This document shows positions 6,939 through 24,203 of a stretch of 64,000 nt of DNA, piece after piece. Under the pieces are notes generated by a model. That model saw only the letters and a list, made by a program, of their open reading frames with translations, was not told the origin of the DNA and did not search any database. Source of the stretch: Candidatus Micrarchaeota archaeon. GTDB lineage: Archaea; Micrarchaeota; Micrarchaeia; Micrarchaeales; Micrarchaeaceae. Within the stretch, counting starts at the first letter, position 1, and the number at the start of each line of letters is the position of its first letter. Location of the stretch: contig JAJYYC010000002.1 in the NCBI GenBank assembly GCA_021801385.1, positions 45,238-109,237 of the forward strand, in the 5' to 3' direction. The position numbers were made by a program, and so were the translations under genes.

Positions 6939-7037
6939 CACACAATCAGACAATAATTGTAGGACTTTAGGCGCAATTATGCCAACCAGAACTGGTCTGG
7001 TGATATATACGCTTTATGACGTGGTCGCACAGTTTCT

Positions 7038-7049
7038 ATTTATATAATA
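7038..7049 (+). promoter_or_regulatory. TATA-box-like element upstream of the KaiC-like gene
   Basis: atttatataata lies about 30-40 nt upstream of ATG 7079/7085. Confidence 0.45.
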
Positions 7050-7078
7050 GATTAGTTAGATTTATGCGATCGGTTGGG

Positions 7079-7909
7079 ATGGCCATGGAACGATTAACTA
7101 CAGGAATACCGGGGTTAGACGATATTATGGGAGGCGGGATACCTCCAGGCTTTAACTTGCTTTTAGTTGGAGCTCCAGGAACAGGAAAAACCATAATGGG
7201 ACTTCAATATTTGTGTGGTGGGGCAAAAAAGGGAGAAATAGGCATGTATATTACGCTTGATTCCAGGGCAGACCAGGTAATAGAGCAAGGAAAGCAGTTT
7301 GATTGGGATCTCGAACGGCTCATGGCAGAAGGAAAAATAAGAATGCTCGAGATACCGCTGAACAAGCAGAAAAGAGTAGATATATTCAGAATGATAGAGG
7401 ACAAGGCAAAGGAGTGGGGTGTAAAAAGAATTGTATTTGACAGCCTATCTTCTTTCTTATTCAATATTAATCAATTCATAATAAATCTGCCAAAAATAGA
7501 TGACATGTCGACCATGCCGGAAGATCTCAAGAAATATATAGGAGAGGATCCAGTAACAAAACAGATGATACCTGAAACCCTTCAAAAGGATATGCCAGAC
7601 CCAAAGTTTTATTCAGGAGGAGAAGCAAACTTGGAAAAAAGAATTGTGTATTTAGCACTAAAAGAACTTGTGAAGGTTGGCACTACTAATTTTATAATAA
7701 CAAGTCAAAACACTTCTTCTAGTAATGAAAATCCAATTACAACTGACGGAGTTAGTGAATTTGTATCTGATGGTGTATTACACTTACATGCGGTTGAAGG
7801 TGAAGATGCATTTAATACATTAAATATATTAAAACTAAGACTTACAAAAGTAAATAGAGGCATATATAATTTTGATATATCGGAAAAGGGAATTTCAATT
7901 AAAAATTAA
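7079..7909 (+). CDS. KaiC/RecA-superfamily ATPase (single-domain archaeal KaiC-like)
   Basis: GIPGLDDIMGGGIPPGFNLLLVGAPGTGKT (Walker A) and RIVFDSLSS (Walker B). The ORF track starts at 7016, but I prefer ATG 7079 or 7085 because of the TATA box at 7038-7049. There is a roughly 50-aa insertion after Walker B. Confidence 0.8.
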   Translation: MAMERLTTGIPGLDDIMGGGIPPGFNLLLVGAPGTGKTIMGLQYLCGGAKKGEIGMYITLDSRADQVIEQGKQFDWDLERLMAEGKIRMLEIPLNKQKRVDIFRMIEDKAKEWGVKRIVFDSLSSFLFNINQFIINLPKIDDMSTMPEDLKKYIGEDPVTKQMIPETLQKDMPDPKFYSGGEANLEKRIVYLALKELVKVGTTNFIITSQNTSSSNENPITTDGVSEFVSDGVLHLHAVEGEDAFNTLNILKLRLTKVNRGIYNFDISEKGISIKN

Positions 7910-7931
7910 AACAAATTAGGCTAAGAATTAT

Positions 7932-8507
7932 ATGACAACATACATGTTTGACATGTTTAAGTTCTCACGCATGTTAGACATGAAAGATGGCCAATTAAGT
8001 CTTATGGGAACGCCGATAAGTATTGTGCCAACAGATCTTTTATGTGAACAGCAAAAAATGTTAATAGATACGCTTGGCATAGAAAAGGCATACGATAGTA
8101 TATATTCAGCATCAAAAAAAGGTGCATTTGAATATAATAATGAATTCATAAAAAAACAAAAATTTGAAGACAAAAAGAAAATTATTGACTGGCAAAAAAA
8201 AATTGTTACTTTTGCAGGATGGGGAGAGGTAGAAATAGCTTTATCAGATGTAAAAAATACAAAATTTGTATTTGTATTTAGAAACTCACCATATCCAAAA
8301 TCGTATGGTTCCGCAAAATATGCTGTTGATTTTGTAGCTTCAGGATTTGCAGCTGGGGGTTTAAGTGTTGTTTGTGGAGAGAATCTTGACGCAGTAGAAA
8401 TAAAGTGTATGGCGCGTGGTGATCCATTTTGTCAAATTGTTGTTGATAAACCAGAGATTGTAATGGACACAAAAATTAACCTGTGGAAAACTTGGGGAGT
8501 TCGTTGA
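7932..8507 (+). CDS. V4R-domain (4-vinyl-reductase-like) sensor protein with an XylR-N-like N-terminal part
   Basis: The C-terminal segment ASGFAAGGLSVVCGENLDAVEIKCMARGDPFCQIVVD matches the V4R signature (C...E..C.a.Gd..C.f.v). The gene starts 22 nt after the KaiC-like stop. Confidence 0.75.
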   Translation: MTTYMFDMFKFSRMLDMKDGQLSLMGTPISIVPTDLLCEQQKMLIDTLGIEKAYDSIYSASKKGAFEYNNEFIKKQKFEDKKKIIDWQKKIVTFAGWGEVEIALSDVKNTKFVFVFRNSPYPKSYGSAKYAVDFVASGFAAGGLSVVCGENLDAVEIKCMARGDPFCQIVVDKPEIVMDTKINLWKTWGVR

Positions 8508-9352
8508 GCTCTTTAATAGATATGTTGAAGATTACCGTCCCAGAGTATATGCCAGTTGGATTAATAGCCACATTAGTTGGTATGGCATATACCATTAATT
8601 TAACCTCTTTTAATATAAAAATGGTATATGCACTTTTGTCGGTCGCTTTCATTATTGCAGGTTATAATACTTATAATGCCATTGTGGATTTAGAAATAGA
8701 TAGAATAAATAAGCCAGATAGGCCATTGCCAAAAGCATTATTGACAATAAAAGATGCAAAATATATAACAATTATTTCATTTTTTATTAGTCTTGTATTA
8801 AGTTTATTAATAAATAAAATAGCTTTTCTTATTGCGTTAGTAACAATTACGTTATCGGTTTTATATTCATATAGACCAATTAATCTAAAGGGTAGATTCA
8901 TTTTAGGAACGTTAGCTGCTACAGTTCTTTATACAATTACATTTCCTTTAATCGGGTGGTCAGTTTCACAGTATAGTAAAATACCAATTCAAATAATTTT
9001 TTATCTGTTCGTTTTTGGATTAGTCGTTGCCATACTAAAAGATTTTGAAGATATAATAGGAGACAACCATTATGAAGCACACACAATAATAAGTTATTTA
9101 GGTTATACTAAAACAATAAAATTATTATTGCTACTTATTTTGTTTGGGATTATTTTAGTCATTGGTTTTGTTTATTATGGTTTTCTAAGTATCTATTACT
9201 TAGGTTTGCTAATATTTAGTTTATTATATCTATTAAACTTGTACTATTTAAATATGAATAAAACAACAAAACGTGCAAAACGTGCATTTATTTATAGCAT
9301 GGTTATAATGATCTTTATGGAAATATTTTTAATAGCTCTTAAACTTTTATAA
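8483..9352 (+). CDS. UbiA-family membrane prenyltransferase (DGGGP-synthase / BchG-ChlG-like)
   Basis: First Asp-rich motif NAIVDLEIDRINKPDRPLP and second motif ILKDFEDIIGD, with about 8 TM helices. The internal ATG at 8522 would remove the overlap with the V4R gene. Confidence 0.8.
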   Translation: MENLGSSLSSLIDMLKITVPEYMPVGLIATLVGMAYTINLTSFNIKMVYALLSVAFIIAGYNTYNAIVDLEIDRINKPDRPLPKALLTIKDAKYITIISFFISLVLSLLINKIAFLIALVTITLSVLYSYRPINLKGRFILGTLAATVLYTITFPLIGWSVSQYSKIPIQIIFYLFVFGLVVAILKDFEDIIGDNHYEAHTIISYLGYTKTIKLLLLLILFGIILVIGFVYYGFLSIYYLGLLIFSLLYLLNLYYLNMNKTTKRAKRAFIYSMVIMIFMEIFLIALKLL

Positions 9353-9364
9353 TTCACAATTTTA

Positions 9365-10414
9365 TTACCATGCATATTTCATGCCACCTTTAAATGCACG
9401 GATTATTTTTAGTAGATTAGGTAATAAGGAGGGGTATTTAAGCGCTTTTAGTTTAGTAGTTGTTGGAAGATTTAACAGATCTTTATCGTGAGTAAGTTTG
9501 CCTATTATTTCAAGTTCTTTTTGATTTAATGATAAAATAGTTTTCATCGCTAAACTATAGCTTTTTGAGAATGCAGGATGCGAACGTATTTTTTGTTCAT
9601 AGGAACTAGAAAATCCATTTTTTAAGCAATACGTAAGTATATCAGATGCATAAACGATAGCAGCCAGCCCTCCTTTGCTAAATGCGTTTGCCATACCTGC
9701 AGAATCTCCAACTAAAAAGTATTTGTCTTCGTGTATTTTAGAGCCATTAAATGGTATTGTGTAACCTTCTTTTTTAAGAATTTCTCCAGAAATTTTATAT
9801 TTTTTACAAAAGTTATCTAATTTTTTAAGATTTCCAATTACACCTACATTAAAGTAATCTTTTTTTGGAAAATTCCAACCGTATAAATCAGAGATGTCTA
9901 GATCCCAATAGAATTCTAATAAATCATGATTTTCCCAATCAAGCTTCATTTTATACTGCATTGCTGTACACATATCTACTTTTCCTCCTATTTTTTGTCT
10001 CACTTTTGATATGGGTCCGTCAGCACCAATTATAACGCTTTCGTTTAATTTAGACACATCTTTTATTTCTGAATTAAAAATTACTTGACCACCATTCTTT
10101 TCAAAATGTCTTCTAATTCCATCAATCCATTTTTCACGTTCTAACACATATCCATATTCATACGTAAATGTATAATAGTTACCAGGAAAAATGTTTTTTA
10201 ATCCGTCTATACTAGAAGAAAAATATGGTGCTGAGTCAAATCCTGTATCGTGCCTTAACTTTAAAATTGCAGTGTGTGAAATTCCTTCACCACAAGGTGT
10301 ACTAATAACCCGTTCGTTCTTTTCATATATTGTAACTTTAAAACCTGCTTTAACTAAGTAACTACCGGCTATTACACCGGCCGGTCCCCCGCCAATTATA
10401 CCAATGTCTTTCAT
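9365..10414 (-). CDS. FAD-dependent geranylgeranyl-reductase-family oxidoreductase
   Basis: N-terminal IGIIGGGPAGVIAGSYL (GxGxxG), YGWNFPKKDYFNVGV (GGR-type YxWxFPK motif) and LVGDSAGMANAFSKGG. Confidence 0.8.
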   Translation of the reverse strand: MKDIGIIGGGPAGVIAGSYLVKAGFKVTIYEKNERVISTPCGEGISHTAILKLRHDTGFDSAPYFSSSIDGLKNIFPGNYYTFTYEYGYVLEREKWIDGIRRHFEKNGGQVIFNSEIKDVSKLNESVIIGADGPISKVRQKIGGKVDMCTAMQYKMKLDWENHDLLEFYWDLDISDLYGWNFPKKDYFNVGVIGNLKKLDNFCKKYKISGEILKKEGYTIPFNGSKIHEDKYFLVGDSAGMANAFSKGGLAAIVYASDILTYCLKNGFSSSYEQKIRSHPAFSKSYSLAMKTILSLNQKELEIIGKLTHDKDLLNLPTTTKLKALKYPSLLPNLLKIIRAFKGGMKYAW

Positions 10415-10442
10415 TAGCTCAGTATAAATTAATCAAACTAAA

Positions 10443-10454
10443 CTATATAAATTT
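10443..10454 (+). promoter_or_regulatory. TATA-box-like element upstream of the mini-ORF
   Basis: ctatataaattt lies about 40 nt upstream of ATG 10495. The same CTATATAAAT core is seen upstream of the DUF929 gene. Confidence 0.35.
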
Positions 10455-10494
10455 ACCTGTCAAAATATTATTGAGTGAAATGAGGTGAATATTT

Positions 10495-10542
10495 ATGATA
10501 CTCCAAATGTTCGGTGGAGGTGCTAGTGGACCAGGAGGTTAA
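10495..10542 (+). CDS. 15-codon mini-ORF, MILQMFGGGASGPGG
   Basis: ATG 10495 is preceded by GAGGTGA (10482-10488, 6-nt spacer) and a TATA-like box, and the ORF ends at TAA 10540-10542. It is too short for the ORF track, and expression is unproven. Confidence 0.3.
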   Translation: MILQMFGGGASGPGG

Positions 10543-10554
10543 TTAAGCATAAGA

Positions 10555-11895
10555 TCATTCATATTTTTCTTTTTGACCTAATTTAAGTCCGTAGTTTTTT
10601 GTTAAAATATCGTAAATGTTAGTATAGGTAGGGTCAAAATTTCTATAGCAAAATTCACCTAATATAATATTTGTTACAACTAAACTTTCGGTTCTAGAAC
10701 CGCTAATGTTGCTCAAAATATTATCCGTAGATGCAATATCATGTTCATTAAATATCGGTGTTATATGTAGCACACCATCTGGTATACCAATATCCTCGGC
10801 AAATAAGTACTTGTTTATTATTCCCCGTTTTGATATAAGTTCTAATAGCCATTTTTGACGGGATTCACTAAATAATTTATAATTGTTTATTTTCATTATA
10901 AAAATTCCGTTAAATTTAAAACCTATTGGTTTTATTGTTATTGTTGTTCTGTTAATTATACCCTTGGTTTTTAATTTATAGAAAATATAGTTTGTGTGTC
11001 CGCTTTCCAACCCTAATTTTCGATCGATGTTTCTAAACTCTTCGTTGCCGTTTTTAACTAGCTCGTTCATAACTTTGCATTCTAATTTTCCAAACCATTT
11101 ATTTATTTTGTTTTTTTCCGCGCTTTGTTTAACCATTTCAAGAAACGGGTTGCGAGGCATTATCACACTTGATTCAGAAGTAAATGTTATGCTCAAATAC
11201 ATTTCAGCGGAATAATTTCTTAATATAGTTTGGCTCCTTAGTTCGTAAAAAAATTTAGATAACGATTCGTCTTTTTTCATATAAAAAATAATTATTAGAT
11301 TAAATTCCCCTTTTGTTTCTGCAATTAATATAACATTGGGATTATTTTCAAATTCTGCTTTTAATTCCGAAGGGCTCGGTTTTTGTTCTAAAAATTTAGC
11401 CAATACAACATAAGTATGGTACCCTAGATTAAATGTATTTATATCTGCAAAATATCTTATTTTATATTTAGCCTCCAGCCGCTTAACAAAGTGCCTTGTT
11501 CCTGTCACCGACATTCCAATCCTTTTTGATAGCAGGTTCATGCTCATCCTGCCGTTCATGCTCAGGTTCCTGATTGCTATTTCCTCACGTTTATCATATT
11601 CCTCGTTACCAAAGGTTTGCTGTGTTTTGTTCTTTGATTCCAAACTAGCTAACTGTCGCTGCTCCTTCGATAAGTATTTGCCTTCATTGGTTATGTGTCC
11701 TATGTAGTATGTCTTTACTATTGTCTTTCTTCTGACATTGTCCCTTACTGTTTCATATTCGTAGACGTAGTAATGGTTGTTTATTTTATGCAGCGAAAGT
11801 TTCTTGCCGAGTTCCTGCTTAAGCGCATCAAATGTGTCTTGCACTTCCTTTGGCGTTTCTCTCATTTGCACCATTTTAATTGCATAAATACCCAT
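10555..11895 (-). CDS. large transcription regulator with two Lrp/AsnC-like (HTH + ligand-binding) modules
   Basis: 446 aa. IRNLSMNGRMSMNLLSKRIGMSVTGTRHFVKRLEAKYKIRYFADIN (HTH_AsnC-like) is followed by a RAM-like segment. A second HTH-like segment is VMNELVKNGNEEFRNIDRKLGLESGHTNYIFYKLKTKGII. The N-terminal 90 aa are unassigned. Confidence 0.6.
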   Translation of the reverse strand: MGIYAIKMVQMRETPKEVQDTFDALKQELGKKLSLHKINNHYYVYEYETVRDNVRRKTIVKTYYIGHITNEGKYLSKEQRQLASLESKNKTQQTFGNEEYDKREEIAIRNLSMNGRMSMNLLSKRIGMSVTGTRHFVKRLEAKYKIRYFADINTFNLGYHTYVVLAKFLEQKPSPSELKAEFENNPNVILIAETKGEFNLIIIFYMKKDESLSKFFYELRSQTILRNYSAEMYLSITFTSESSVIMPRNPFLEMVKQSAEKNKINKWFGKLECKVMNELVKNGNEEFRNIDRKLGLESGHTNYIFYKLKTKGIINRTTITIKPIGFKFNGIFIMKINNYKLFSESRQKWLLELISKRGIINKYLFAEDIGIPDGVLHITPIFNEHDIASTDNILSNISGSRTESLVVTNIILGEFCYRNFDPTYTNIYDILTKNYGLKLGQKEKYE

Positions 11896-12267
11896 ATTTA
11901 TGGTTTTTGTGTGAGTTATGATTTAACCAAACATTGTTAATGTAGGAAAAGTTTTGTAAATCTTTTCAGTTTAGTTGAAATTTTGATTTTTGGTTTTTTA
12001 TTTGTGTATTGGGTGGTTGTGTGTTATTTTTCAGAGTATGTAACATAACGGAATTGGACAAAAACTTTATATATGATTCAGGCTACAAATCTTTTGTTAG
12101 TATGTGCCAATATGCCCCTGGAAAAAGTGGAGTACTCATTCTTATCCGCTGGCGTTAGCTACGCTATCGTAACTGAAAGGCGCAATCTTGTAAAATGGCA
12201 TGTCGGAGAGGCATGTTTTCAATTTTAGTGGTTACTTAGCCCCCGAGCTATGCTTTAGTTAGGTGTA

Positions 12268-13536
12268 ATGATGGAAAACAAAAATAACAACAAAAAAATA
12301 TATTCAACAAGTGAAGTATCTGGGATGCTTCGTGGCTTAGGCAGTGGATATCATGGATCGAACAATTTTCCGAATTTTGTTCTTAGAGATTATTTGAGGC
12401 TGAATAAGCCCCTCTCTTTTGAGTTAGGGTATTCGGTTGGGTTATTTGCAATATATCCTGGGAACGCGGCGCTGATGCAGGATAAAAACCTTCAAAACCT
12501 ATTTGGGAAGCCGGAACTTGCTAAGATCCAATCAAATGCACTATTATCCTCACTTTATAACAGAGCAACAATGGAGCACGGGCATGAGCAGCTCGCAGGA
12601 ATTGTGGCATCTGTTATAGATTATGACATAGGTGGCTCTCAACATGTGAAGTTATCTCCTTTATCAGAAGTTGTCTGCGATAATTGTGGGACAGGAGGAG
12701 ATAGGATAGGAACCTTTCACATAAGCACAATTGCTGCGTTTATAGCGGCTGCGCATGGCATGAGAATGGCAAAGCATGGATCACCAGGAAATGCAAGACA
12801 GTCCGGCAGTAGCGATATGATAAACGCACTTGGCATAGACAATATGCCAGAACCAAATAAAGTAGAGCGGGCTATAGATAATGTCGGGTTTGCTTATATA
12901 GAAGCACTGGACACCCGTTATAAAAGTATACACGTACAGACCCATGAATTTGCCAGATTTGCACATATGAACGACATAATAGGGCCAATGACGAATCCCG
13001 TAGACCCATCAAAACTACAGATAAAGCTTTTAGGAACCAACGCCATAGTGAGCCCGATAACGATAGCACTTGCTTATAAGAAGCTGAACGAACTTGGTGT
13101 GACAAACATCAAAAGGGGGCTTTTTGTAAGAGGATACCTTAATGGTGACACTACGATCACAACAGATGAGGTATCAATAATGAGAGGAGGCACGGAGGCG
13201 GCCCTGTTAGATAATGGCAGAATAACCAAAATGCACATTAATTTCAGCTCGTTTGGATTTGAACACCCCGTTCGCGTAGAAGACATACGCCCGAGATATA
13301 ACACGAAAGACGGAAGAATAGGGTATTCGTTAGAAGTTATTAATGGCAATGCACCGAATGGGGCAATCAATACATTGCTGGCCAATTCAGCCGCCATAAT
13401 TGCACTAAACATGGAAAAGATCGATTTTATTGAGGCTACAAAGATGGCTGAAACCGTATTTAAGTCTGGAGGTCATATTGATATAATAAATAGCGTAAAA
13501 ACCGCACTGCCATTGAGGGAAGAGGTTGTTTTGTGA
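12268..13536 (+). CDS. glycosyl-transferase family 3 protein (anthranilate phosphoribosyltransferase-like, divergent)
   Basis: CDNCGTGGDRIGTFHISTIAAFIAAAHGMRMAKHGSPGNARQSGSSDMINALGI aligns with the TrpD core D.xGTGGD..TFNiST...KHGNRs.SS.sGSaD.leaLG. The NRS segment is replaced or expanded. Confidence 0.75.
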   Translation: MMENKNNNKKIYSTSEVSGMLRGLGSGYHGSNNFPNFVLRDYLRLNKPLSFELGYSVGLFAIYPGNAALMQDKNLQNLFGKPELAKIQSNALLSSLYNRATMEHGHEQLAGIVASVIDYDIGGSQHVKLSPLSEVVCDNCGTGGDRIGTFHISTIAAFIAAAHGMRMAKHGSPGNARQSGSSDMINALGIDNMPEPNKVERAIDNVGFAYIEALDTRYKSIHVQTHEFARFAHMNDIIGPMTNPVDPSKLQIKLLGTNAIVSPITIALAYKKLNELGVTNIKRGLFVRGYLNGDTTITTDEVSIMRGGTEAALLDNGRITKMHINFSSFGFEHPVRVEDIRPRYNTKDGRIGYSLEVINGNAPNGAINTLLANSAAIIALNMEKIDFIEATKMAETVFKSGGHIDIINSVKTALPLREEVVL

Positions 13537-14369
13537 ATATCAGAAACATGTTCAGGTCAAAAAAGCCAGTTATAGGAGCCCTGCATTTCATGCCCCTTCT
13601 CGGATATCCAGGGTTCAGAGGTTTGGACATTGTTTTGGCCGCTGCCGTGAAGGATCTGCACGCATTGCAAGATGGAGGTATTGATGGGATAATACTTGAA
13701 AACAACTATGATATACCACACAAGATAAGCGTTGGTCCGGAGACTATTGCTTCAATGACATACCTATGCTCAGAACTCGCCAAGATTTCAACCGTGCCGT
13801 TAGGGGTAAGCGTACTTTGGAATGACTTTAAGGCTGGCTTGGCAATAGCTAAGGTTATTGGAGCAAAGTTTGTGAGGGTTCCAGTATTTGTGGACGACGT
13901 TGAAACGGATTTTGGCATAATATATTGCAACCCGAAGGAGGTTTTAGATTACAGATCCAATTTGGGTGCTGATGATGACATTGCAATTTTTGCAGACATA
14001 CAGGTAAAGCACGCAAGAATGTTAAAGAGCGTGCAGATAGAGGAGTCGGCAGCGTTGGCCCAGTCTCAAGGTGCTGATGCGATAATAGTTACGGGCAAAT
14101 GGACTGGTGATGCACCGTTGGTTGCGGATATTAAAAGGGCAAAATCCGCTGTTAAGATACCAGTACTTGTGGGCAGCGGCATGGATATTAACAATGCTGC
14201 TGAGCTCTTAACATATTCTGATGGGGCGATAGTGAGCACTTCGGTGAAAAATGACGAGATCGCATCTGCGAATGAGAGAAATGTGAAATCATGCAACAGT
14301 AGGGTAAGCAAAGATAAAGTAAAAATGCTCATGAACGAAGTAAAAAGTATTATTCATGCCGATAACTAA
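13533..14369 (+). CDS. BtpA/SgcQ-family predicted TIM-barrel protein
   Basis: KPVIGALHFMPLLGYPGF ... LQDGGIDGIILENNYDIP matches the BtpA signature (iG.vHl.PLpGsP ... GvDgiivEN..D.P). The GTG start overlaps the upstream stop (GTGA). Confidence 0.7.
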   Translation: MNIRNMFRSKKPVIGALHFMPLLGYPGFRGLDIVLAAAVKDLHALQDGGIDGIILENNYDIPHKISVGPETIASMTYLCSELAKISTVPLGVSVLWNDFKAGLAIAKVIGAKFVRVPVFVDDVETDFGIIYCNPKEVLDYRSNLGADDDIAIFADIQVKHARMLKSVQIEESAALAQSQGADAIIVTGKWTGDAPLVADIKRAKSAVKIPVLVGSGMDINNAAELLTYSDGAIVSTSVKNDEIASANERNVKSCNSRVSKDKVKMLMNEVKSIIHADN

Positions 14370-14443
14370 TGCTCTTTTTCATCATCCATTTTATATGATT
14401 TTATTCTGAAGATTTTGGCGTTGGCGATTTACCCTTAACACAA

Positions 14444-15307
14444 TCAGATGTTGCGCTCGCGTATTTTGTGCCCCAGTTCCTTTGCCTTTGCGCGCAGATG
14501 GTGCCTCATTTCCTCTGTCTTGGGTTTTATGTGAATTCCCATGGGCTTTGTTGGTATTCCTTCATCCTCTAACCCTTTTACCTTATTAGGGTTGTTAGTC
14601 ATGAGAAGCACTGAATTGACTCCGATAGATTTAAGCATCTCTGCTGCGATCATGAACGAACGCCCTTCGTTTTTAAGGCCCATTTTTAAGTATGCTTTGT
14701 ATACGCTCAGAGGTTTTCCTGATTTGTCCTTCCTTTCGGTTATGCGTCCTTTGTTCCACTCGAACACCATATTGTAGGCCTTGACCTTTGCAGCCAGCCC
14801 GTATCCTGCGCCCTCCTGGTCCAGATACACCAAAACCCCTCTCCCTTTTCTTCGTATCTGTCGCATCGCCTTATCCAGTTCCTCTCTGCACTCGCAGTTT
14901 GTCGCATGGAAGAGCTCGCTGGTCTCGCACTTCGAATGCACCCTTACCAGTACGTTCTTCCCATCTCCAAGAGAACCGTTCTTGTAGTCCCCGTACACGA
15001 GCGCCGAATGCAGCGCGCCGGTGGTGTAGTCTCCGAATATCAAGTATGTCCAATTACCGAATTGCGTATGAAGGGGTGTCGATGCCAGAAGCTTAGATGC
15101 CCCATGACCTCCTCTTGTCAGGGATAATCTGGCGTTTTCTTCCTTTACCCATGGTTTCTCCCAGCGCACCTCAGTATCAATTATCCATTGCGGTTTGCTT
15201 TTTTCATAGGCCATAAAATCCTTGCAGTAAGATAGTCTTTGCATTAAATAGCTATATGCCTTTACCCATCGGTTTCTTATGGAGGCATAGATATGATCTT
15301 TTGCCAA
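14444..15307 (-). CDS. GTP cyclohydrolase II (RibA)-like protein with a roughly 110-aa N-terminal extension
   Basis: VRVHSKCETSELFHATNCECREELDKAM keeps the three zinc Cys of RibA (HSEC...CDCG.QL). GRGVLVYLDQEGAGYGL and LLMTNNPNKV follow. The sequence is divergent (EGRGIGL becomes EGAGYGL, plus an internal insertion). Confidence 0.7.
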   Translation of the reverse strand: MAKDHIYASIRNRWVKAYSYLMQRLSYCKDFMAYEKSKPQWIIDTEVRWEKPWVKEENARLSLTRGGHGASKLLASTPLHTQFGNWTYLIFGDYTTGALHSALVYGDYKNGSLGDGKNVLVRVHSKCETSELFHATNCECREELDKAMRQIRRKGRGVLVYLDQEGAGYGLAAKVKAYNMVFEWNKGRITERKDKSGKPLSVYKAYLKMGLKNEGRSFMIAAEMLKSIGVNSVLLMTNNPNKVKGLEDEGIPTKPMGIHIKPKTEEMRHHLRAKAKELGHKIRERNI

Positions 15308-15550
15308 AGTCCACTTTATAAAAATAATTTTTATTTATTGTACTTTGAATACTTTAGCTTTTATTCTCTCCATTCTAGCCGAGATACATGAGTGGGCCTA
15401 ACCGCCCTGAACGCCACAGGATACGCGTTTGGTGCTCCTGTTTCCGGCAGATGGAAAGGGCATCCTGCAGCAGTCCGGCGAGTATCAGTTTTAGTTGGGG
15501 TTTCTGTCCACTACCTTTGCCATAATCGCAGGCGCCAGATCGTACGGTTT

Positions 15551-16225
15551 TTAATGCACGCTCTCATCACCAACAGAGCCGTATAACGCATTTGTGCGGT
15601 TGACTGATGCCCATCTTCTGTCACCGTAAGACCAATGCCACCATTCTCTCGGATTTCCGACAAAACCTGCTGATACCATTGTGGTTATCAGCAGCTGACG
15701 GTTTGAGGCCTGGTTTGCGGATAGGCTATCACACACCATATTCGCCATCGGACTTACCGTGTTTATCGGCGTCCCCATATCCAACTCGTTTCCGTTCCCG
15801 TCAAGTATGGTGAGATCCAGCGCTCCGCCCGTTGTATGTGGCGGCACCACCTTTGGGTTTGCAACCCATTTGTCTGTCTCTGTACATAGCTCTTCTTCAC
15901 TCAACTGTGGATTTTTTACCCTTATCTCTTCCATGACCTGGTTGTACAGTTTCTTTTGTGCTTCAATTGGTCTGTATCCGTCTGTAATCCTGAATCTGAA
16001 TCCCTTTGGAAGTGCGATTGCCGCGGATTTTAGCATGATAACCGCAGTTAAGCGCAGCATGCATGTTCCATCTGGTATATTCTGCTCGTTTTTTGATATA
16101 TTTTCTATATCAATCACTGCGTTCCGCACTTTCTCCGCTATGTTTACGAGCGGTTCGCCTGATTCCCTTATTGGAATCCTGATCAGTTCTTCGTTTGTCA
16201 TCACTTTTGCTATCCCTCCAGTCAT
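15551..16225 (-). CDS. D-alanyl-D-alanine dipeptidase (VanX/DdpX, peptidase M15D)
   Basis: PPHTTGGALDLTI (HxxGxAxD zinc motif) and PREWWHWSYGD (E-W-W-H motif), with the DGYRP region upstream. Confidence 0.85.
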   Translation of the reverse strand: MTGGIAKVMTNEELIRIPIRESGEPLVNIAEKVRNAVIDIENISKNEQNIPDGTCMLRLTAVIMLKSAAIALPKGFRFRITDGYRPIEAQKKLYNQVMEEIRVKNPQLSEEELCTETDKWVANPKVVPPHTTGGALDLTILDGNGNELDMGTPINTVSPMANMVCDSLSANQASNRQLLITTMVSAGFVGNPREWWHWSYGDRRWASVNRTNALYGSVGDESVH

Positions 16226-16229
16226 CAGA

Positions 16230-16661
16230 TCATCTCACCGTTCTGAGTAGCACGGCCCTTCTGTGTGCGTGGGTTTTGCCTTCTCTAGTCTTTATCGTTC
16301 CGAACGGAATGCTTAATACCCTGCGGTCTGGGTCCTTAAAACTGAGCTGCTCTCTAAGTCCGGTCAGTGTCAAAAGCGCAACCTCTGCGTCTACGCGCGC
16401 GTGTTCAAGGTGCGCGAATGGATAGATCACTATGTCCATTACCCCTAGTTCCGATGCTATGTTGCTTATTATGCTCGCCGCCCTTATGTGCGACCCATTT
16501 TCCTGGTCTGCTGATTCCACATTGACATAAACTACCAACGAGTTCCCTACTTCAAACAGATTGGAGTTAGTTGTGGGTTTCTGCGGTTCAAATTCGCAGG
16601 GTTTGTCGACCACCTCGCACCTGAAGTATACCATGTGTTCCAGAAGCATCTTCATCTGCAT
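16230..16661 (-). CDS. free-standing archaeal threonyl-tRNA-synthetase editing domain (tRNA-Thr_ED, DTD-like fold)
   Basis: As far as I recall the Pyrococcus ThrRS N-terminal editing domain, it aligns along its whole length: MKMLLEHMVYFRCEV / MRVLLIHSDYIEYEV, SLVVYVNVESADQEN / VLVAFISVEKVDEKN, IVIYPFAHLEH / VFVYPFAHLSS, and IPFG...K...H. Only about 140 aa, with no catalytic or anticodon-binding domain. Confidence 0.75.
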   Translation of the reverse strand: MQMKMLLEHMVYFRCEVVDKPCEFEPQKPTTNSNLFEVGNSLVVYVNVESADQENGSHIRAASIISNIASELGVMDIVIYPFAHLEHARVDAEVALLTLTGLREQLSFKDPDRRVLSIPFGTIKTREGKTHAHRRAVLLRTVR

Positions 16662-17707
16662 CTACCCAATGCGTCTCTTAACAGGACCATCGCCTGGTTT
16701 ATTGTCGGTATTGTGGTTTCGCCGCTTGATGATTTTTTTACTCTCATTTCTGGCATTACTACGAGAGGGGGTATCCTTGCAATCAATCCCTCTTCTTTGA
16801 GCATGGAAGAAACTCCTTCATAGTATGTGTGCATGCACCTTCCGCCTTTCACAATAAACGGATTGAGTGCAAGGCTGGCAAGTACGTATCCGCATAACCT
16901 AGGAGAGCCTCGCTCCGGAGGCTTGCGCTCGGCCGCCTCGCTGCCCATGCGGAAGAGCTCAGCTGATTTGGGCTGCTGCAGCTGCATGCTCAGCGGCACG
17001 TCAATGACGTATTCCGGTATTCTTTGACCCACGGCATCGGATGCAGCATAAAGGAGCGAGAGGTGAATCGCCCTGTTAATCAGGCGCAGCGCCTGCGCAA
17101 AACTGGGCTGTTGGGGCAACGCCGCGATTGCGGCCTCCATCAGCTCCTTTGGTACCTTTAATTCTATGTTCTCAGTATCCCTACGTAGCGCATCCATCTC
17201 ATTAGTACCTAGCGTATTCCTTACCTTGCAGAGCTCCATGCTTCGTTCCTCAGGTTTTAGCGTGCGGCCCAGATCCACTACAGCACCTCCGCATATAAGC
17301 AATCCCGGTTCATAAATGTTGTCTCTACCGACCGTGTTCGTGTCTACTACGGTCCTTAGCTCGGCCATTCTGAGTCCCGGATTTTTGAGAATGAAATTAA
17401 CAGTAGCCGTAACGTCTCCAAGACGAACCAGATCGGTGTTTCCATAGTGCGGGCTGTTATGTATAATCATCCGGTCCTTCATCTCTAATGGTTCTATTTT
17501 TGTTCTTAGCTTTTCCGGGTAAGATGCCTCAATTGCGGGCAGGGTTCTGCAGAGTTCGCCAGTCAGATTCTGGTCTGCTGCCGCTATGAAGCCCGCGCCG
17601 GTTTCTGCGACAAGCTCTCTCATGGTCGCAGCGAACCTGCGCATGGACGATGCTGGATTCTTCCCATTGGTGAAATTTATCGTTTTCATAGTCTCACGGC
17701 TCGGCAT
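16652..17707 (-). CDS. hypothetical 351-aa protein, no family recognised
   Basis: Long ORF translationally coupled to both neighbours (14-nt overlap upstream, about 10-nt overlap downstream). No motif that I can name. Confidence 0.7.
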   Translation of the reverse strand: MPSRETMKTINFTNGKNPASSMRRFAATMRELVAETGAGFIAAADQNLTGELCRTLPAIEASYPEKLRTKIEPLEMKDRMIIHNSPHYGNTDLVRLGDVTATVNFILKNPGLRMAELRTVVDTNTVGRDNIYEPGLLICGGAVVDLGRTLKPEERSMELCKVRNTLGTNEMDALRRDTENIELKVPKELMEAAIAALPQQPSFAQALRLINRAIHLSLLYAASDAVGQRIPEYVIDVPLSMQLQQPKSAELFRMGSEAAERKPPERGSPRLCGYVLASLALNPFIVKGGRCMHTYYEGVSSMLKEEGLIARIPPLVVMPEMRVKKSSSGETTIPTINQAMVLLRDALGRCR

Positions 17708-18083
17708 TGACTTTATTTATGATGCTTAGTATTGTGCTTCCGGATTTTGTCAGAGTAGCTGGCCTGAGGGACCCGCCACCGCTGAATGCTATAAGACCGA
17801 ATTCCCGTAACTTTCTGGCATTGAGCTTTAGGGTGGAAAGAGGTATCTCCTCGGATATGGAAAGCGAACGCAGAACCGAAGTTATGCCTTCGTTTCGGTT
17901 ATAGTAGAGACGCGAGAGTATGATGACCTGTTTCTCGTTTATGGAAGAAAGCAGCAGCTTTGTCAGATCGCCACGCATGCCCATTGGCGTGGCATCACGT
18001 GTTGGCGGTTCATCACTTTTTGATATTGGCTTTTCATCACGCTTCACCTTGACCTTATAGGCATTGTATAAGTTACAGCCCAC
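17694..18083 (-). CDS. winged-helix DNA-binding protein
   Basis: The C-terminal two-thirds (LTKLLLSSINEKQVIILSRLYYNRNEGITSVLRSLSISEEIPLSTLKLNARKLREFGLI) looks like an ArsR/MarR-type wHTH. First gene of the operon. Confidence 0.6.
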   Translation of the reverse strand: MGCNLYNAYKVKVKRDEKPISKSDEPPTRDATPMGMRGDLTKLLLSSINEKQVIILSRLYYNRNEGITSVLRSLSISEEIPLSTLKLNARKLREFGLIAFSGGGSLRPATLTKSGSTILSIINKVNAEP

Positions 18084-18166
18084 ATAATATAAAAGCGTGC
18101 TGGACAGGTTTTTCTGCCCTTCTAACTACGCCCTAAAAGAGACGACTGCAGAGAACCATTATATAA

Positions 18167-24041: not shown

Positions 24042-24178
24042 TGGGGTTGCAGGGATTTGAACCCTGACCAACAGGTTACTTCATATTATCCGACTTCCAG
24101 ATTACTGTCATCGCTTTTCGCTCGCATGTCAAATAAACATCTGGAGCCTGCTACGCTGCCAAGTTACGCCACAACCCC
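24042..24178 (-). tRNA. tRNA-Trp (anticodon CCA) with an intron of about 64 nt at the canonical 37/38 position
   Basis: Read by hand. The acceptor is GGGGTTG/CAACCCC, the T arm is CAGGG-TTCAAAT-CCCTG, the anticodon stem is GCAGG/CCTGT and the loop is CU-CCA-G. Intron CTGGA pairs with TCCAG of the anticodon loop, as in bulge-helix-bulge substrates. No encoded CCA. Confidence 0.85.
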
Positions 24179-24191
24179 GTGGATAACACCA

Positions 24192-24203
24192 CTATATAAA
24201 TAG
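24192..24203 (+). promoter_or_regulatory. TATA-box-like element upstream of the DUF929 gene
   Basis: ctatataaatag lies about 30 nt upstream of ATG 24232, consistent with a leaderless or very short leader transcript. Confidence 0.45.

Follow-up and report, generated by a model that had tools for sequence, protein, structure and literature searches.

The four minus-strand genes analyzed here may represent, in its Micrarchaeota form, a compact cassette, distributed across DPANN archaea, for handling D-amino acids or their dipeptides; a 351-residue protein would act in it as the analogue of an amino-acid-activating ligase. We infer this mechanism, and the reading is tentative, its chances falling a little short of even. 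The enzymology of D-amino acids and D-Ala-D-Ala is usually tied to bacterial murein, which the host archaeon is not expected to make. A VanX-type cassette that spans DPANN, its partners including racemase, epimerase and Ddl-type proteins, implies a metabolism of D-amino acids or dipeptides in archaea without expected murein; a search of the full-text literature found no description of a DPANN VanX-type dipeptidase cassette. The cassette also contains a paralogue of the ThrRS editing domain (ED), which offers the proofreading field a natural experiment: it has left ThrRS and lost its alpha-amino anchor. Such paralogues have entered peptidase operons at least twice, with M15 and with ArgE/DapE. 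Moreover, two uncharacterized enzyme families, the 351-residue "orphan" and c2/c6, occupy the peptide-ligase position, and a new, highly derived class I aaRS-like protein may be among them. With four small, soluble-looking proteins, these hypotheses are directly testable in vitro.

Organization of the gene cluster

The window, i.e., the whole stretch of 64,000 nucleotides of Candidatus Micrarchaeota DNA that was analyzed, carries at positions 15551-18083 a block of four minus-strand genes, its junctions lying between -4 and +4 nt, with one TATA-like box at its head. The ORF list of the window contains all four reading frames at the coordinates given by an earlier, sequence-only reading.

18086..18093, minus strand: TATA-like box TTTATATT heading the four genes, putative single promoter
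17694..18083, minus strand: TK0271-like small winged-helix protein (wHTH), 129 aa as annotated
16652..17707, minus strand: orphan, 351 aa, rare Micrarchaeota family, predicted enzyme
17435..17461, minus strand: orphan motif H-N-S-P-H-Y-G-N-T, orphan residues 83-91
16230..16661, minus strand: stand-alone ThrRS-editing-domain (ED) paralogue, 141 aa from ATG 16655
15551..16225, minus strand: M15D (VanX/DdpX-type) zinc D,D-dipeptidase, 224 aa

Two of the junctions are exactly as had been claimed. The orphan stop codon (TGA, 16654-16652) shares an ATGA with the ED start at ATG 16655, an overlap of 4 nt (a second in-frame ATG of the ED lies at 16661), and the ED stop (16232-16230) is followed by "tctg" and then by the M15 ATG at 16225, a gap of 4 nt. 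The third claim, an overlap between the wHTH and the orphan, holds for one start codon only. The wHTH stop reads TGA at 17696-17694; the overlap is 14 nt if ATG 17707 is used, but becomes a 4-nt gap if the orphan starts at Met7 (ATG 17689), the choice of homologues and gene callers, which gives a protein of 345 aa.

The TATA-like box would serve as a single promoter for the four genes. It is the sole minus-strand match of a motif scan from 15.3 to 18.7 kb, and the motif is enriched across the window (18 observed vs 8.6 expected). A box of the same form also stands just upstream of an intron-containing tRNA at 24.2 kb. Since the GTG annotated as the wHTH start (18083) lies immediately next to the box, the real start is probably downstream, at Met34 (17984), with a product of about 96 aa.

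The block had also been described as richer in GC than its surroundings. The count of 34/60 at 17041-17100 is correct, but the enrichment is only mild and not anomalous (0.491, as against 0.453 in the window as a whole, which ranks at the 86th percentile among stretches of the same size). The long antisense ORFs are likewise real, reaching 163 aa, yet purifying selection acts on the sense frames: the C-terminal 26 aa of the ED are the same as in the related locus L001 despite 14 synonymous differences in 84 nt. Searches of the window revealed neither a Ddl or racemase nor a ThrRS core.

Conservation in Micrarchaeota and sister cassettes across DPANN

The gene order is not unique to this genome, and the cluster constitutes a conserved, translationally coupled unit, as the sequence-only reading had supposed. 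Orphan, ED and M15 occur together in four loci (the window, L001, L005 and L108), orphan and M15 without the ED in two (L003 and L006), and orphan and ED without an adjacent M15 in one (L114); the ED is missing from 2/7 orphan loci and M15 from 1/7. The 351-aa protein is the constant element (7/7), in keeping with its proposed role as the core, and the ED has been lost in two sub-lineages that retain orphan and M15. Among the Micrarchaeota loci, the orphan is 32-51% identical to its window copy, the ED 45-57% and M15 50-62%, and the repetition of the order in independent loci that are 32-62% identical puts the arrangement far beyond chance. Among the orphan-type loci, the wHTH is at the head position in the window only and does not keep this place in the others.

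In the M15 tree, a single DPANN clade is found, the sub-clades of which match the operon types, and the orthologues of this clade are always the last gene of a compact co-directional cassette. The clade seems to have descended vertically within DPANN and not to be a recent acquisition from bacteria. The partners of M15, among them racemase/epimerase-fold proteins of the PLP-independent kind, are swapped between lineages and comprise a DAP-epimerase-fold protein (PF01678, 1.5e-33 and about 3e-12; TIGR00652, 8.7e-22), an Asp/Glu-type racemase, a Ddl-type ATP-grasp ligase (PF07478, 8.8e-20; NF002378, 2.4e-39), a GNAT protein and another uncharacterized family. In L006 an amino-acid racemase overlaps the end of M15 (PF01177, 1.2e-25; NF052483, 204 bits, above its cut-off). 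The Ddl-type ligase fills the large slot in one lineage (L019/L021), together with GNAT, and in most lineages this slot is filled by uncharacterized families, either the orphan or the c2/c6 proteins, which lie in the large upstream slot and are unrelated to the orphan. A wHTH analogous to that of the window (c3) heads the Woese/Pace/Nanoarchaeota cassettes. The ED is absent from all cassettes of types A, B and C. No transporter was found to be conserved with any cassette type, and the cassettes have no linked Mur ligases, MraY or further wall genes.

The D-amino-acid theme of the sequence-only reading is strengthened by the sister cassettes, in which a racemase, a DAP-epimerase-fold protein and a Ddl-type D-Ala-D-Ala ligase join the orthologous M15. 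Its detoxification or scavenging idea survives as regards the handling of D-amino acids, but not as the sole role: the Ddl-type ligase that fills the corresponding slot elsewhere also points to synthesis or utilization. A link to the peptidoglycan of a bacterial partner is speculation.

The dipeptidase and the winged-helix protein

The profile searches kept both family assignments made earlier, VanX and editing domain. The M15 protein matches PF01427 (2.2e-25, 90 bits vs a Pfam gathering cut-off of 27) and the VanX structure 1r44 (9.7e-11). The zinc ligands His116, Asp123 and His184, as well as Glu181 and Arg71 (VanX numbering), all align to 1r44 within the motifs DGYRP (R71), PPHTTGGALD (H116/D123) and EWWH (E181/H184), and all of them are invariant in three homologues. 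From its sequence, the protein is an intact VanX/DdpX-type zinc dipeptidase with predicted activity, and it appears to be cytoplasmic, judging by eye from an N-terminus that shows no signal peptide. Its score is 99.9 bits (1.4e-28) against the NCBIfam DdpX model and 46.1 bits against the VanX model, below the equivalog cut-offs of 176 and 320, respectively; with both cut-offs missed and a separate DPANN clade in the tree, it was rejected as an orthologue of either DdpX or VanX.

The wHTH matches the NCBIfam model TK0271_fam (NF053753, winged-helix transcriptional activators) over residues 40-124 and profile positions 2-85 of 89 (1.6e-16); the c3 protein matches this model as well. The score of the window protein, 60 bits, is under the cut-off of 130 bits, and by this measure it is a relative and not a curated member. 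It also matches the C-terminal wHTH of Csa3 in PADLOC (0.003).

The diverged editing domain

The ED matches PF08915 over profile positions 1-133 of 137 (4.1e-16, 59.8 bits vs 30.2) and the N-terminal domain of Pab ThrRS (PDB 1y2q) over its full length (1.6e-9). Stand-alone EDs are not odd per se in DPANN, where they usually serve ThrRS as its split-off editing subunit; the unusual point here is a diverged paralogue that carries, as read from the alignment, Glu134->Val. In the archaeal ThrRS editing domain, PFAH and Lys121 surround the scissile bond, the side chains of Tyr120 and the cross-subunit Glu134 contact the seryl moiety, and Glu134 anchors the alpha-amino group (PMC4491819). The window ED keeps PFAH (Pro80-Phe81-Ala82-His83), the FG motif and Lys121, and is substituted at Tyr119->Thr, Tyr120->Ile and Glu134->Val. 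Throughout the cassette clade, the aromatic 119/120 pair is gone (Tyr/Trp119->Thr/Ala/Cys, Tyr120->Ile/Ser/Thr) and Val134 is present in 6/6, whereas EDs of fused and split ThrRS retain Glu134. The latter include the stand-alone EDs of L112 (Aenigmarchaeota) and L113 (Micrarchaeota), which lie beside an ED-less ThrRS core. The cassette EDs form a clade separate from the ThrRS-linked copies, to which they are about 27-30% identical, and their sister clade carries Val/Ile134 and adjoins an ArgE/DapE N-acyl-amino-acid deacylase. In 5/5 loci the ED comes directly after the orphan (4-nt overlap to 5-nt gap) and adjoins no ThrRS core. This location, the change of Glu134 to Val and the lost aromatic pair make a role as a trans-editing subunit of ThrRS very unlikely.

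In the Pyrococcus editing domain, deacylation survives the mutations Tyr120Ala and Glu134Ala (PMC4491819), and the substitutions of the cassette clade thus prove divergence and not a new substrate. The ThrRS editing domain has a DTD-like fold (PMC4491819), and the ED had accordingly been taken for a possible D-aminoacyl-tRNA deacylase. This part of the sequence-only reading finds no support: the ED has no match to the DTD family PF02580 at E <= 0.1, and its 141-aa sequence contains no Gly-Pro dipeptide and therefore no DTD-type Gly-cisPro motif.

The 351-residue protein

The "orphan" is not one in the strict sense, as seven clusters exist in public data, the only credible ones among 1.84 billion (1.84e9) representatives. 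It has no matches in Pfam, NCBIfam, PDB, PADLOC or PHROG; a Pfam search with all seven family members and an HMM search against PDB sequences likewise returned nothing. The alignment of the seven sequences is rich in invariant polar residues, as is typical of enzymes.

The AF2 model of the protein, a confident one (pLDDT 81, pTM 0.86), weakly resembles class I aaRS catalytic domains. In three Foldseek searches, class I aaRS, MshC or CDPS came top by probability (1.00, 0.89 and 0.82 at most), and nearly all matches with a probability of 0.6 or above were class I aaRS or MshC, yet these matches are weak (E >= 1.5e-3, TM 0.26-0.37, RMSD above 10 Å). The likeness did not become stronger with a better model, and hhalign against an archaeal TyrRS profile gave a probability of 0.14%. 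Within the motif at residues 83-91, N84, S85, P86, H87, G89, N90 and T91 are invariant, His83 being replaced by Trp in P0007. The invariant H87-x-G89-N90 lies in the model in a loop between strand 80-85 (strand 1) and helix 96-108, and the motif is a candidate nucleotide-binding "HIGH-like" signature. As for KMSKS, the window copy has "KKSSS", in a stretch that is not conserved in P0003-P0007.

Proposed function and alternative explanations

In the proposed cassette, M15 would interconvert or clear D,D-dipeptides and thereby yield free D-amino acid, which a racemase, where present, would likewise supply. The 351-aa protein would be an ATP-dependent amino-acid-activating ligase, a non-homologous analogue of the Ddl-type ligase and perhaps a class I aaRS-like (HUP) catalytic domain in very derived form, with the H-x-G-N loop as its nucleotide site. 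The ED paralogue would be its partner hydrolase, directed not at Ser-tRNA(Thr) but at an off-pathway ester, aminoacyl or N-acyl-aminoacyl, carried by a terminal adenosine, and the TK0271-like wHTH would regulate the unit from the single promoter. That the same slot means the same function for the orphan and the Ddl-type ligase is an argument by analogy; a precedent is a class I aaRS paralogue, a predicted peptide ligase, whose place is taken in analogous operons by ATP-grasp ligases (PMC2922099). As a counterpoint, a ligase and a dipeptidase encoded together would seem to undo each other's work if they did not differ in specificity.

The scavenging or detoxification module of the sequence-only reading, in which M15 splits D-Ala-D-Ala or other D,D-dipeptides imported from the surroundings, a racemase, where there is one, converts D- to usable L-forms, the ED, in the manner of a D-aminoacyl-tRNA deacylase, protects translation against the D-amino acids set free and the 351-aa protein is a non-ligase accessory, is a possibility that we consider rather unlikely. 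It is in line with the intact catalytic residues of the dipeptidase, the racemase or epimerase partners in sister cassettes, the nature of DPANN archaea as auxotrophic symbionts and the role of E. coli DdpX in D-Ala-D-Ala catabolism. The altered amino-acid pocket of an ED with a DTD-like fold (PMC4491819) would also suit it, but the ED lacks the DTD hallmarks and is missing from types A, B and C and from 2/7 orphan loci, although the same D-amino acids would be released there. The lack of a conserved transporter, the persistence of the orphan-ED pair without an adjacent M15 in L114 and the Ddl-type ligase of L019/L021, which is out of place in pure catabolism, further argue against it. Even less probable, and very unlikely, is that the ED is a housekeeping trans-editing subunit of a split ThrRS, here by chance beside an unrelated dipeptidase operon. 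Such subunits exist in DPANN (L112, L113), PFAH and Lys121 are kept, and Tyr120 and Glu134 are dispensable in vitro (PMC4491819); however, the fixed place behind the orphan and never by a ThrRS core, the separate Val134 clade, the loss of the ED in two sub-lineages keeping orphan and M15, and a sister clade that is peptidase-linked too all speak against it.

A tRNA-dependent route is a more specific version of the preferred cassette reading that requires more assumptions. Here the 351-aa protein, as a minimal aaRS/CDPS-like enzyme, would either load a D- or an unusual amino acid onto tRNA (or onto another acceptor that ends in adenosine) or make a dipeptide from aminoacyl-tRNAs; the ED would be its dedicated editing domain in trans, and M15 would remove wrong or surplus dipeptide. 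The orphan-ED pairing (5/7 loci) mirrors the logic of a core plus editing domain, including split ThrRS gene pairs, the fold matches are TyrRS, TrpRS, MshC and CDPS, the orphan is basic (pI 8.8) in window-proximal members, and an ED that has lost its alpha-amino anchor would be suited to an N-acylated (dipeptidyl) ester. On the other hand, the fold evidence is weak, the model ends in a single C-terminal helix with no anticodon-binding domain, no tRNA gene was found linked to the cluster, and the pI is not conserved (6.1 in P0007). We regard this route as unlikely. The same low standing is given to its boldest form, a long shot in which orphan and Val134 ED would be a minimal "synthetase plus editing domain" pair outside translation, the VanX-type dipeptidase clearing released dipeptide, in a tRNA-linked D-amino-acid pathway specific to DPANN. 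The orphan, as a very derived class I aaRS-like enzyme, would then use tRNA or a similar acceptor with a terminal adenosine to esterify or ligate a D-amino acid, or to build a dipeptide, and the re-tuned ED would hydrolyze N-acylated or D-configured aminoacyl esters.

Comparison with known systems

The cassette M15 has its fold family, zinc ligands and catalytic residues in common with VanX/DdpX (MEROPS M15D, PF01427; vanHAX, E. coli ddpXABCDF), and L019/L021, with the M15 orthologue beside a Ddl-type ligase, recall the ligase-plus-dipeptidase logic of van operons. Unlike these operons, the cassette contains no VanH/VanA, two-component regulator or Ddp transporter, and its M15 belongs to a DPANN-specific clade below the DdpX and VanX equivalog cut-offs.

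The archaeal ThrRS N-terminal editing domain (PF08915) is also known as DPANN split-ThrRS subunits and as the separate editing ThrRS of Crenarchaeota. The cassette ED matches it over the full length, with PFAH, the FG motif and Lys121 in common, but is neither fused nor adjacent to a ThrRS core and lies between orphan and dipeptidase. DTD (PF02580) and the ThrRS editing domain share a general fold (PMC4491819), whereas the cassette ED shows no sequence match or Gly-Pro and keeps Lys where DTD has Met.

The orphan may be akin to the class I aaRS-like non-ribosomal ligases (CDPS, MshC and the MetRS paralogue system; Aravind et al. 2010), and its top structural matches by probability are TyrRS, TrpRS, ArgRS, MshC and CDPS. 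The orphan has its invariant H-x-G-N loop after strand 1, putatively equivalent to HIGH, but no profile similarity, a TM of about 0.3 and no conserved KMSKS; in CDPSs, HIGH is missing altogether. In the MetRS paralogue system (PMC2922099), a synthetase-like protein and an ATP-grasp ligase can stand in for each other, as in the operon logic of the cassettes. Compared to the peptidoglycan D-Ala branch (Alr/DapF-type racemase, Ddl and VanX/DdpX), wall genes are not linked and the ligase is mostly replaced by the orphan or c2/c6, yet the DPANN cassette variants jointly hold the same three predicted activities.

Organization and surroundings of the four-gene block

The four minus-strand ORFs described in the sequence-only reading are all present, with coordinates exactly as it gave them.

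Genes of the block, as ORFs read from the sequence
15551-16225, minus strand: M15, an M15D VanX/DdpX-type dipeptidase
16230-16661, minus strand: ED, a stand-alone ThrRS editing domain
16652-17707, minus strand: the orphan, a 351-aa protein without a family
17694-18083, minus strand: a small wHTH protein

The genes are tightly coupled: the TGA that ends the orphan (16654-16652) shares the sequence ATGA with the start codon at 16655, and 4 nt separate the ED stop from the M15 ATG. The orphan overlaps the wHTH stop by 14 nt if it starts at ATG 17707, or leaves a 4-nt gap if it starts at the second ATG (17689), where its homologues begin; gene callers on contig DAHWNC010000062.1 (MAG GCA_027340205.1) give an orphan of 345 aa and an ED of 141 aa. 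The wHTH protein belongs near the TK0271 family (1.6e-16), scoring 60 bits against a 130-bit cut-off, and the profile match starts at its residue 40. A TATA-like box, TTTATATT, at 18086-18093 is the only minus-strand match between 15.3 and 18.7 kb. The motif is enriched across the window (18 matches vs 8.6 expected) and also precedes an intron-containing tRNA at 24.2 kb. Since the annotated GTG (18083) lies directly against this box, the true wHTH start probably lies downstream, at Met34 (17984).

Several other readings of the block and its spacer were considered and rejected. The GC richness noted earlier is correct as a hand count (34/60), yet the enrichment of the block as a whole is unremarkable (0.491 vs 0.453 for the window, the 86th percentile), and a horizontal-transfer island judged by GC was rejected. 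Likewise, the long antisense ORFs are real, but conservation and synonymous substitution both sit in the sense frames, and they are therefore by-products rather than genes. A defence-system or phage origin was rejected with zero PADLOC matches; the sole PHROG signal was a marginal endolysin-type match for M15 (0.003). The 243-nt spacer separating the M15 stop from the neighbouring gene (15308-15550) is gene-free and fairly GC-rich; a structured RNA there was rejected, as Rfam gave no match at E <= 1, the fold z-score is -1.65 and related loci do not conserve the spacer.

Beyond this spacer, window 12268-15307 codes for a TrpD-like Glycos_transf_3 protein (422 aa), BtpA (278 aa) and GTP cyclohydrolase II (287 aa), an enzyme uncommon in archaea, whose gene has its own TATA-like sequence near 15325. 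This trio is complete on 3/4 of the other contigs retrieved for the organism, and the fourth contig ends inside the cluster. Further off, GC is low in window 7000-12000 (0.28-0.36, where the window averages 0.45), which may mark an island or another class of genes, and the intron-containing tRNA (24042-24178, minus strand; Rfam 48 bits, 137 nt), missed by ARAGORN, has a TTTATATA box just upstream, at 24193-24200.

M15 cassettes in DPANN archaea

The M15 protein matches PF01427 (E 2.2e-25) and the NCBIfam DdpX model (1.4e-28, yet under the equivalog cut-off). Its alignment to VanX (1r44, E 9.7e-11) covers Arg71, His116, Asp123, Glu181 and His184, the motifs of which are invariant among homologues; by this alignment the catalytic residues are intact. 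Among 185,579 species genomes, its closest relatives are nearly all from DPANN, the archaeal group that includes Micrarchaeota (17/19 loci, 38-57% identity), namely from Micrarchaeota, Woese-, Pace- and Nanoarchaeota and Marsarchaeota; the other two loci belong to one actinomycete and one Saccharibacteria MAG. Most of the other metagenome sequences, which are taxonomically unassigned, show <= 36% identity; the values are higher, 38-47%, for four loci of DPANN type (L024-L027). Neighbour-joining groups the DPANN sequences in a single clade whose sub-clades match the operon types.

Operon types of the DPANN M15 cassettes
Type A, 9 loci: wHTH - c2 (~394 aa) - DAP-epimerase-fold protein - M15 (wHTH or c2 cut off or unclustered in L013 and L007-L009)
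Type B, 5 loci: c6 (436-483 aa) - M15
Type C, L019 and L021: MazG - Ddl-type ATP-grasp ligase - DAP-epimerase fold - GNAT - M15
Type D, orphan family: (wHTH) - orphan - (ED) - M15 - (racemase)

The type A wHTH is also TK0271-like (1.2e-5), and the epimerase-fold protein beside it matches PF01678 and TIGR00652 (8.7e-22); its type C counterpart scores 1.5e-33, next to a ligase matching PF07478 (8.8e-20) and NF002378 (2.4e-39). The c6 protein is homologous to c2 (hhalign 97%, E 1e-10), and together they take the position immediately upstream of the epimerase or M15 in most of the remaining DPANN cassettes (L007-L018, L024 and L027, e.g. L011:4132-5316 and L014:4489-5940). This family has zero matches in Pfam, NCBIfam or PDB, and homology of the orphan to it was rejected. 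Around the cassettes no conserved outer neighbours, such as transporters, were found, and within the window there are no homologues of ThrRS, Ddl, racemase or c2/c6. A full-text literature search returned no description of such a DPANN module.

The orphan family is rare. A word-indexed search of 5.8 billion clusters gave 3 matches, a profile run exhaustively against 1.84 billion 50% representatives gave 7 credible clusters, and the alignment used as a pattern scan of genome and metagenome contigs gave zero relatives; relatives among contigs surfaced only with M15 as the search anchor. The L114 context was predicted from its ED sequence alone, which is how that locus was found.

Loci of the orphan family
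Window: orphan-ED-M15
L001/L002: orphan-ED-M15
L005 (Micrarchaeota MAG JOPF124): orphan-ED-M15
L108: orphan-ED-M15
L003: orphan-M15
L006 (Micrarchaeota DBS2-1.bin171): orphan-M15, then an overlapping amino-acid racemase gene (PF01177 1.2e-25; NF052483 204 bits, over its cut-off)
L114: orphan-ED, then a convergent gene

Identity to the window proteins is 32-51% for the orphan, 45-57% for ED and 50-62% for M15, and the gene order represents long-standing co-inheritance rather than chance adjacency. The orphan is the constant element of these loci, and the central place that the sequence-only reading gave it holds. In the M15 tree, each of the two sub-branches of the orphan-type clade contains loci with an ED; ED was therefore probably ancestral to the clade and lost twice. 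The L001 cassette is flanked by two TK0271-family wHTH genes (L001:322-627, plus strand; L001:6388-6708, minus strand), and its orphan is immediately preceded by an 86-aa ORF that gave no match in a family search, so that a regulator lies near this cassette but its position is not conserved.

A diverged editing domain

The ED matches PF08915 (E 4.1e-16) and, over its full length, the N-terminal domain of Pyrococcus abyssi ThrRS (1y2q, E 1.6e-9). With a profile built from the four stand-alone copies, 29 proteins were found, each of them short and PF08915-only; they occur in different settings.

Other stand-alone ED settings
L112:3319-5405 (Aenigmarchaeota, ED P0023) and L113:3044-4709 (Micrarchaeota, ED P0028): split ThrRS, in which the ED directly follows a class II core (tRNA-synt_2b + HGTP_anticodon; 561 or 411 aa) without an editing domain
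L110:5001-9599: tight cluster of ED P0020 (first), ArgE/DapE M20 deacylase (TIGR01910, 213 bits), 458-aa protein, Amidohydro_2 protein and 292-aa protein
L111:4621-6171 (Hydrothermarchaeota): two tandem ED-only genes (123 and 137 aa), then CN-hydrolase

In L110, whose ED belongs to the sister clade of the cassette ED, an ED paralogue has for a second time been recruited into an amide-hydrolase operon; homology of its 458-aa protein to the orphan was rejected. The sole copy examined of the L111 pair (P0022) is of the Glu134 type, and a PALP enzyme and ThiS adjoin the pair.

Around the scissile bond of the ThrRS editing domain lie Pro80, Phe81, Ala82, His83, Tyr120, Lys121 and the cross-subunit Glu134, of which only Tyr120 and Glu134 contact the aminoacyl moiety through side chains, Glu134 holding the alpha-amino group (Ahmad et al. 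2015, PMC4491819). In our alignment and tree, every ThrRS-type ED has Glu134 and is aromatic at position 119; the six EDs of the cassette clade carry Val134, Thr/Ala/Cys119 and Ile/Ser/Thr120, and their M20-linked sister clade carries Val/Ile134. Because the Tyr120Ala and Glu134Ala mutants remain active (PMC4491819), these substitutions indicate divergence and are not proof of a new substrate. The cassette ED appears to be a diverged, neofunctionalised paralogue for which a change of substrate is possible. Suggestively, the two peptidases that accompany ED paralogues, M15D and ArgE/DapE, both break an amide bond at the alpha-amino group of a free amino acid. Aminoacyl esters that are N-acylated or D-configured would suit an ED lacking the alpha-amino anchor. 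The EDs of the window and L001 share exactly the same last 26 residues, although 14/84 nucleotides differ, all synonymously. This shows strong purifying selection, and because of these differences recent DNA exchange was rejected as the cause of the identity.

The nature of the orphan protein

Scans of Pfam, NCBIfam, PADLOC and PHROGs gave zero matches for the orphan, as did phmmer and hmmsearch searches of PDB; comparison by hhalign with a profile of six archaeal TyrRS sequences gave 0.14% probability. Its seven-sequence alignment shows invariant N84-S85-P86-H87-x-G89-N90-T91, R95, D98, E116, R118, T119, D129 and Y132, with His83 replaced by Trp in the homologue P0007, and nearly invariant KGG(R/Q)xMHxY and MPE motifs on the C-terminal side; so many invariant polar residues are typical of an enzyme. 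The KMSKS-like 'KKSSS' is unconserved in the family.

An AlphaFold2 model from this alignment (pLDDT 81, pTM 0.86) shows a fold in which five strands and helices alternate, with a long insertion that is itself helical. With a first model, the top 31 Foldseek matches in PDB were all TyrRS or TrpRS (best E 1.5e-3, TM about 0.3). A better model did not sharpen the assignment: against PDB it gave probabilities of 0.89 for TyrRS, 0.85 for TrpRS, 0.66 for MshC and about 0.3 for CDPS, all other matches being <= 0.35 (best E 1.5e-2, TM about 0.3), and against a viral library 0.60 for both ArgRS and TyrRS (TM 0.28-0.29; best E 2.9e-2, for ArgRS), with one unnamed protein at 0.82 (TM 0.37). A derived class I aaRS-like (HUP) catalytic domain, with chances that we place at about even, is a lead suggested by these models rather than a finding; the hhalign result and the unconserved 'KKSSS' speak against it. 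A ligase role has independent contextual support in the Ddl-type ATP-grasp ligase that occupies the equivalent slot of type C. There is also a precedent in the literature: ATP-grasp ligases take the place of a class I aaRS paralogue, a predicted peptide ligase, in analogous operons (PMC2922099).

A proposed D-amino-acid cassette and its relation to known systems

The best-supported explanation of the four-gene block is a D-amino-acid or dipeptide cassette. The sequence-only reading had proposed a D-amino-acid theme, and M15 orthologues indeed occur alongside racemases or epimerases and, in a single lineage, a bona fide D-Ala-D-Ala-ligase-family enzyme; these partner families across lineages support the theme far better than the two folds visible to that reading. 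Its more specific suggestions, D-aminoacyl-tRNA detoxification and use of material from a bacterial partner, are not favoured. In the D-amino-acid cassette, M15, together with a racemase where present, would manage a D-amino-acid or dipeptide pool, the orphan may act as an amino-acid-activating ligase analogue with the Val134 ED paralogue as its partner ester hydrolase, and the wHTH protein would regulate the unit. Gene order, orthology of the M15 anchor, its partner families, its intact catalytic residues and the divergence of the ED are established; every catalytic role of the orphan, and the ED substrate, is what we infer.

The split ThrRS gene pairs, a core followed by its editing domain, are echoed by the orphan-ED pair, which persists without an adjacent M15 in L114. 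The logic of racemase, ligase and VanX-type enzyme is already known; what is new here is a proofreading domain put to another use, together with one uncharacterised protein family, or arguably two.
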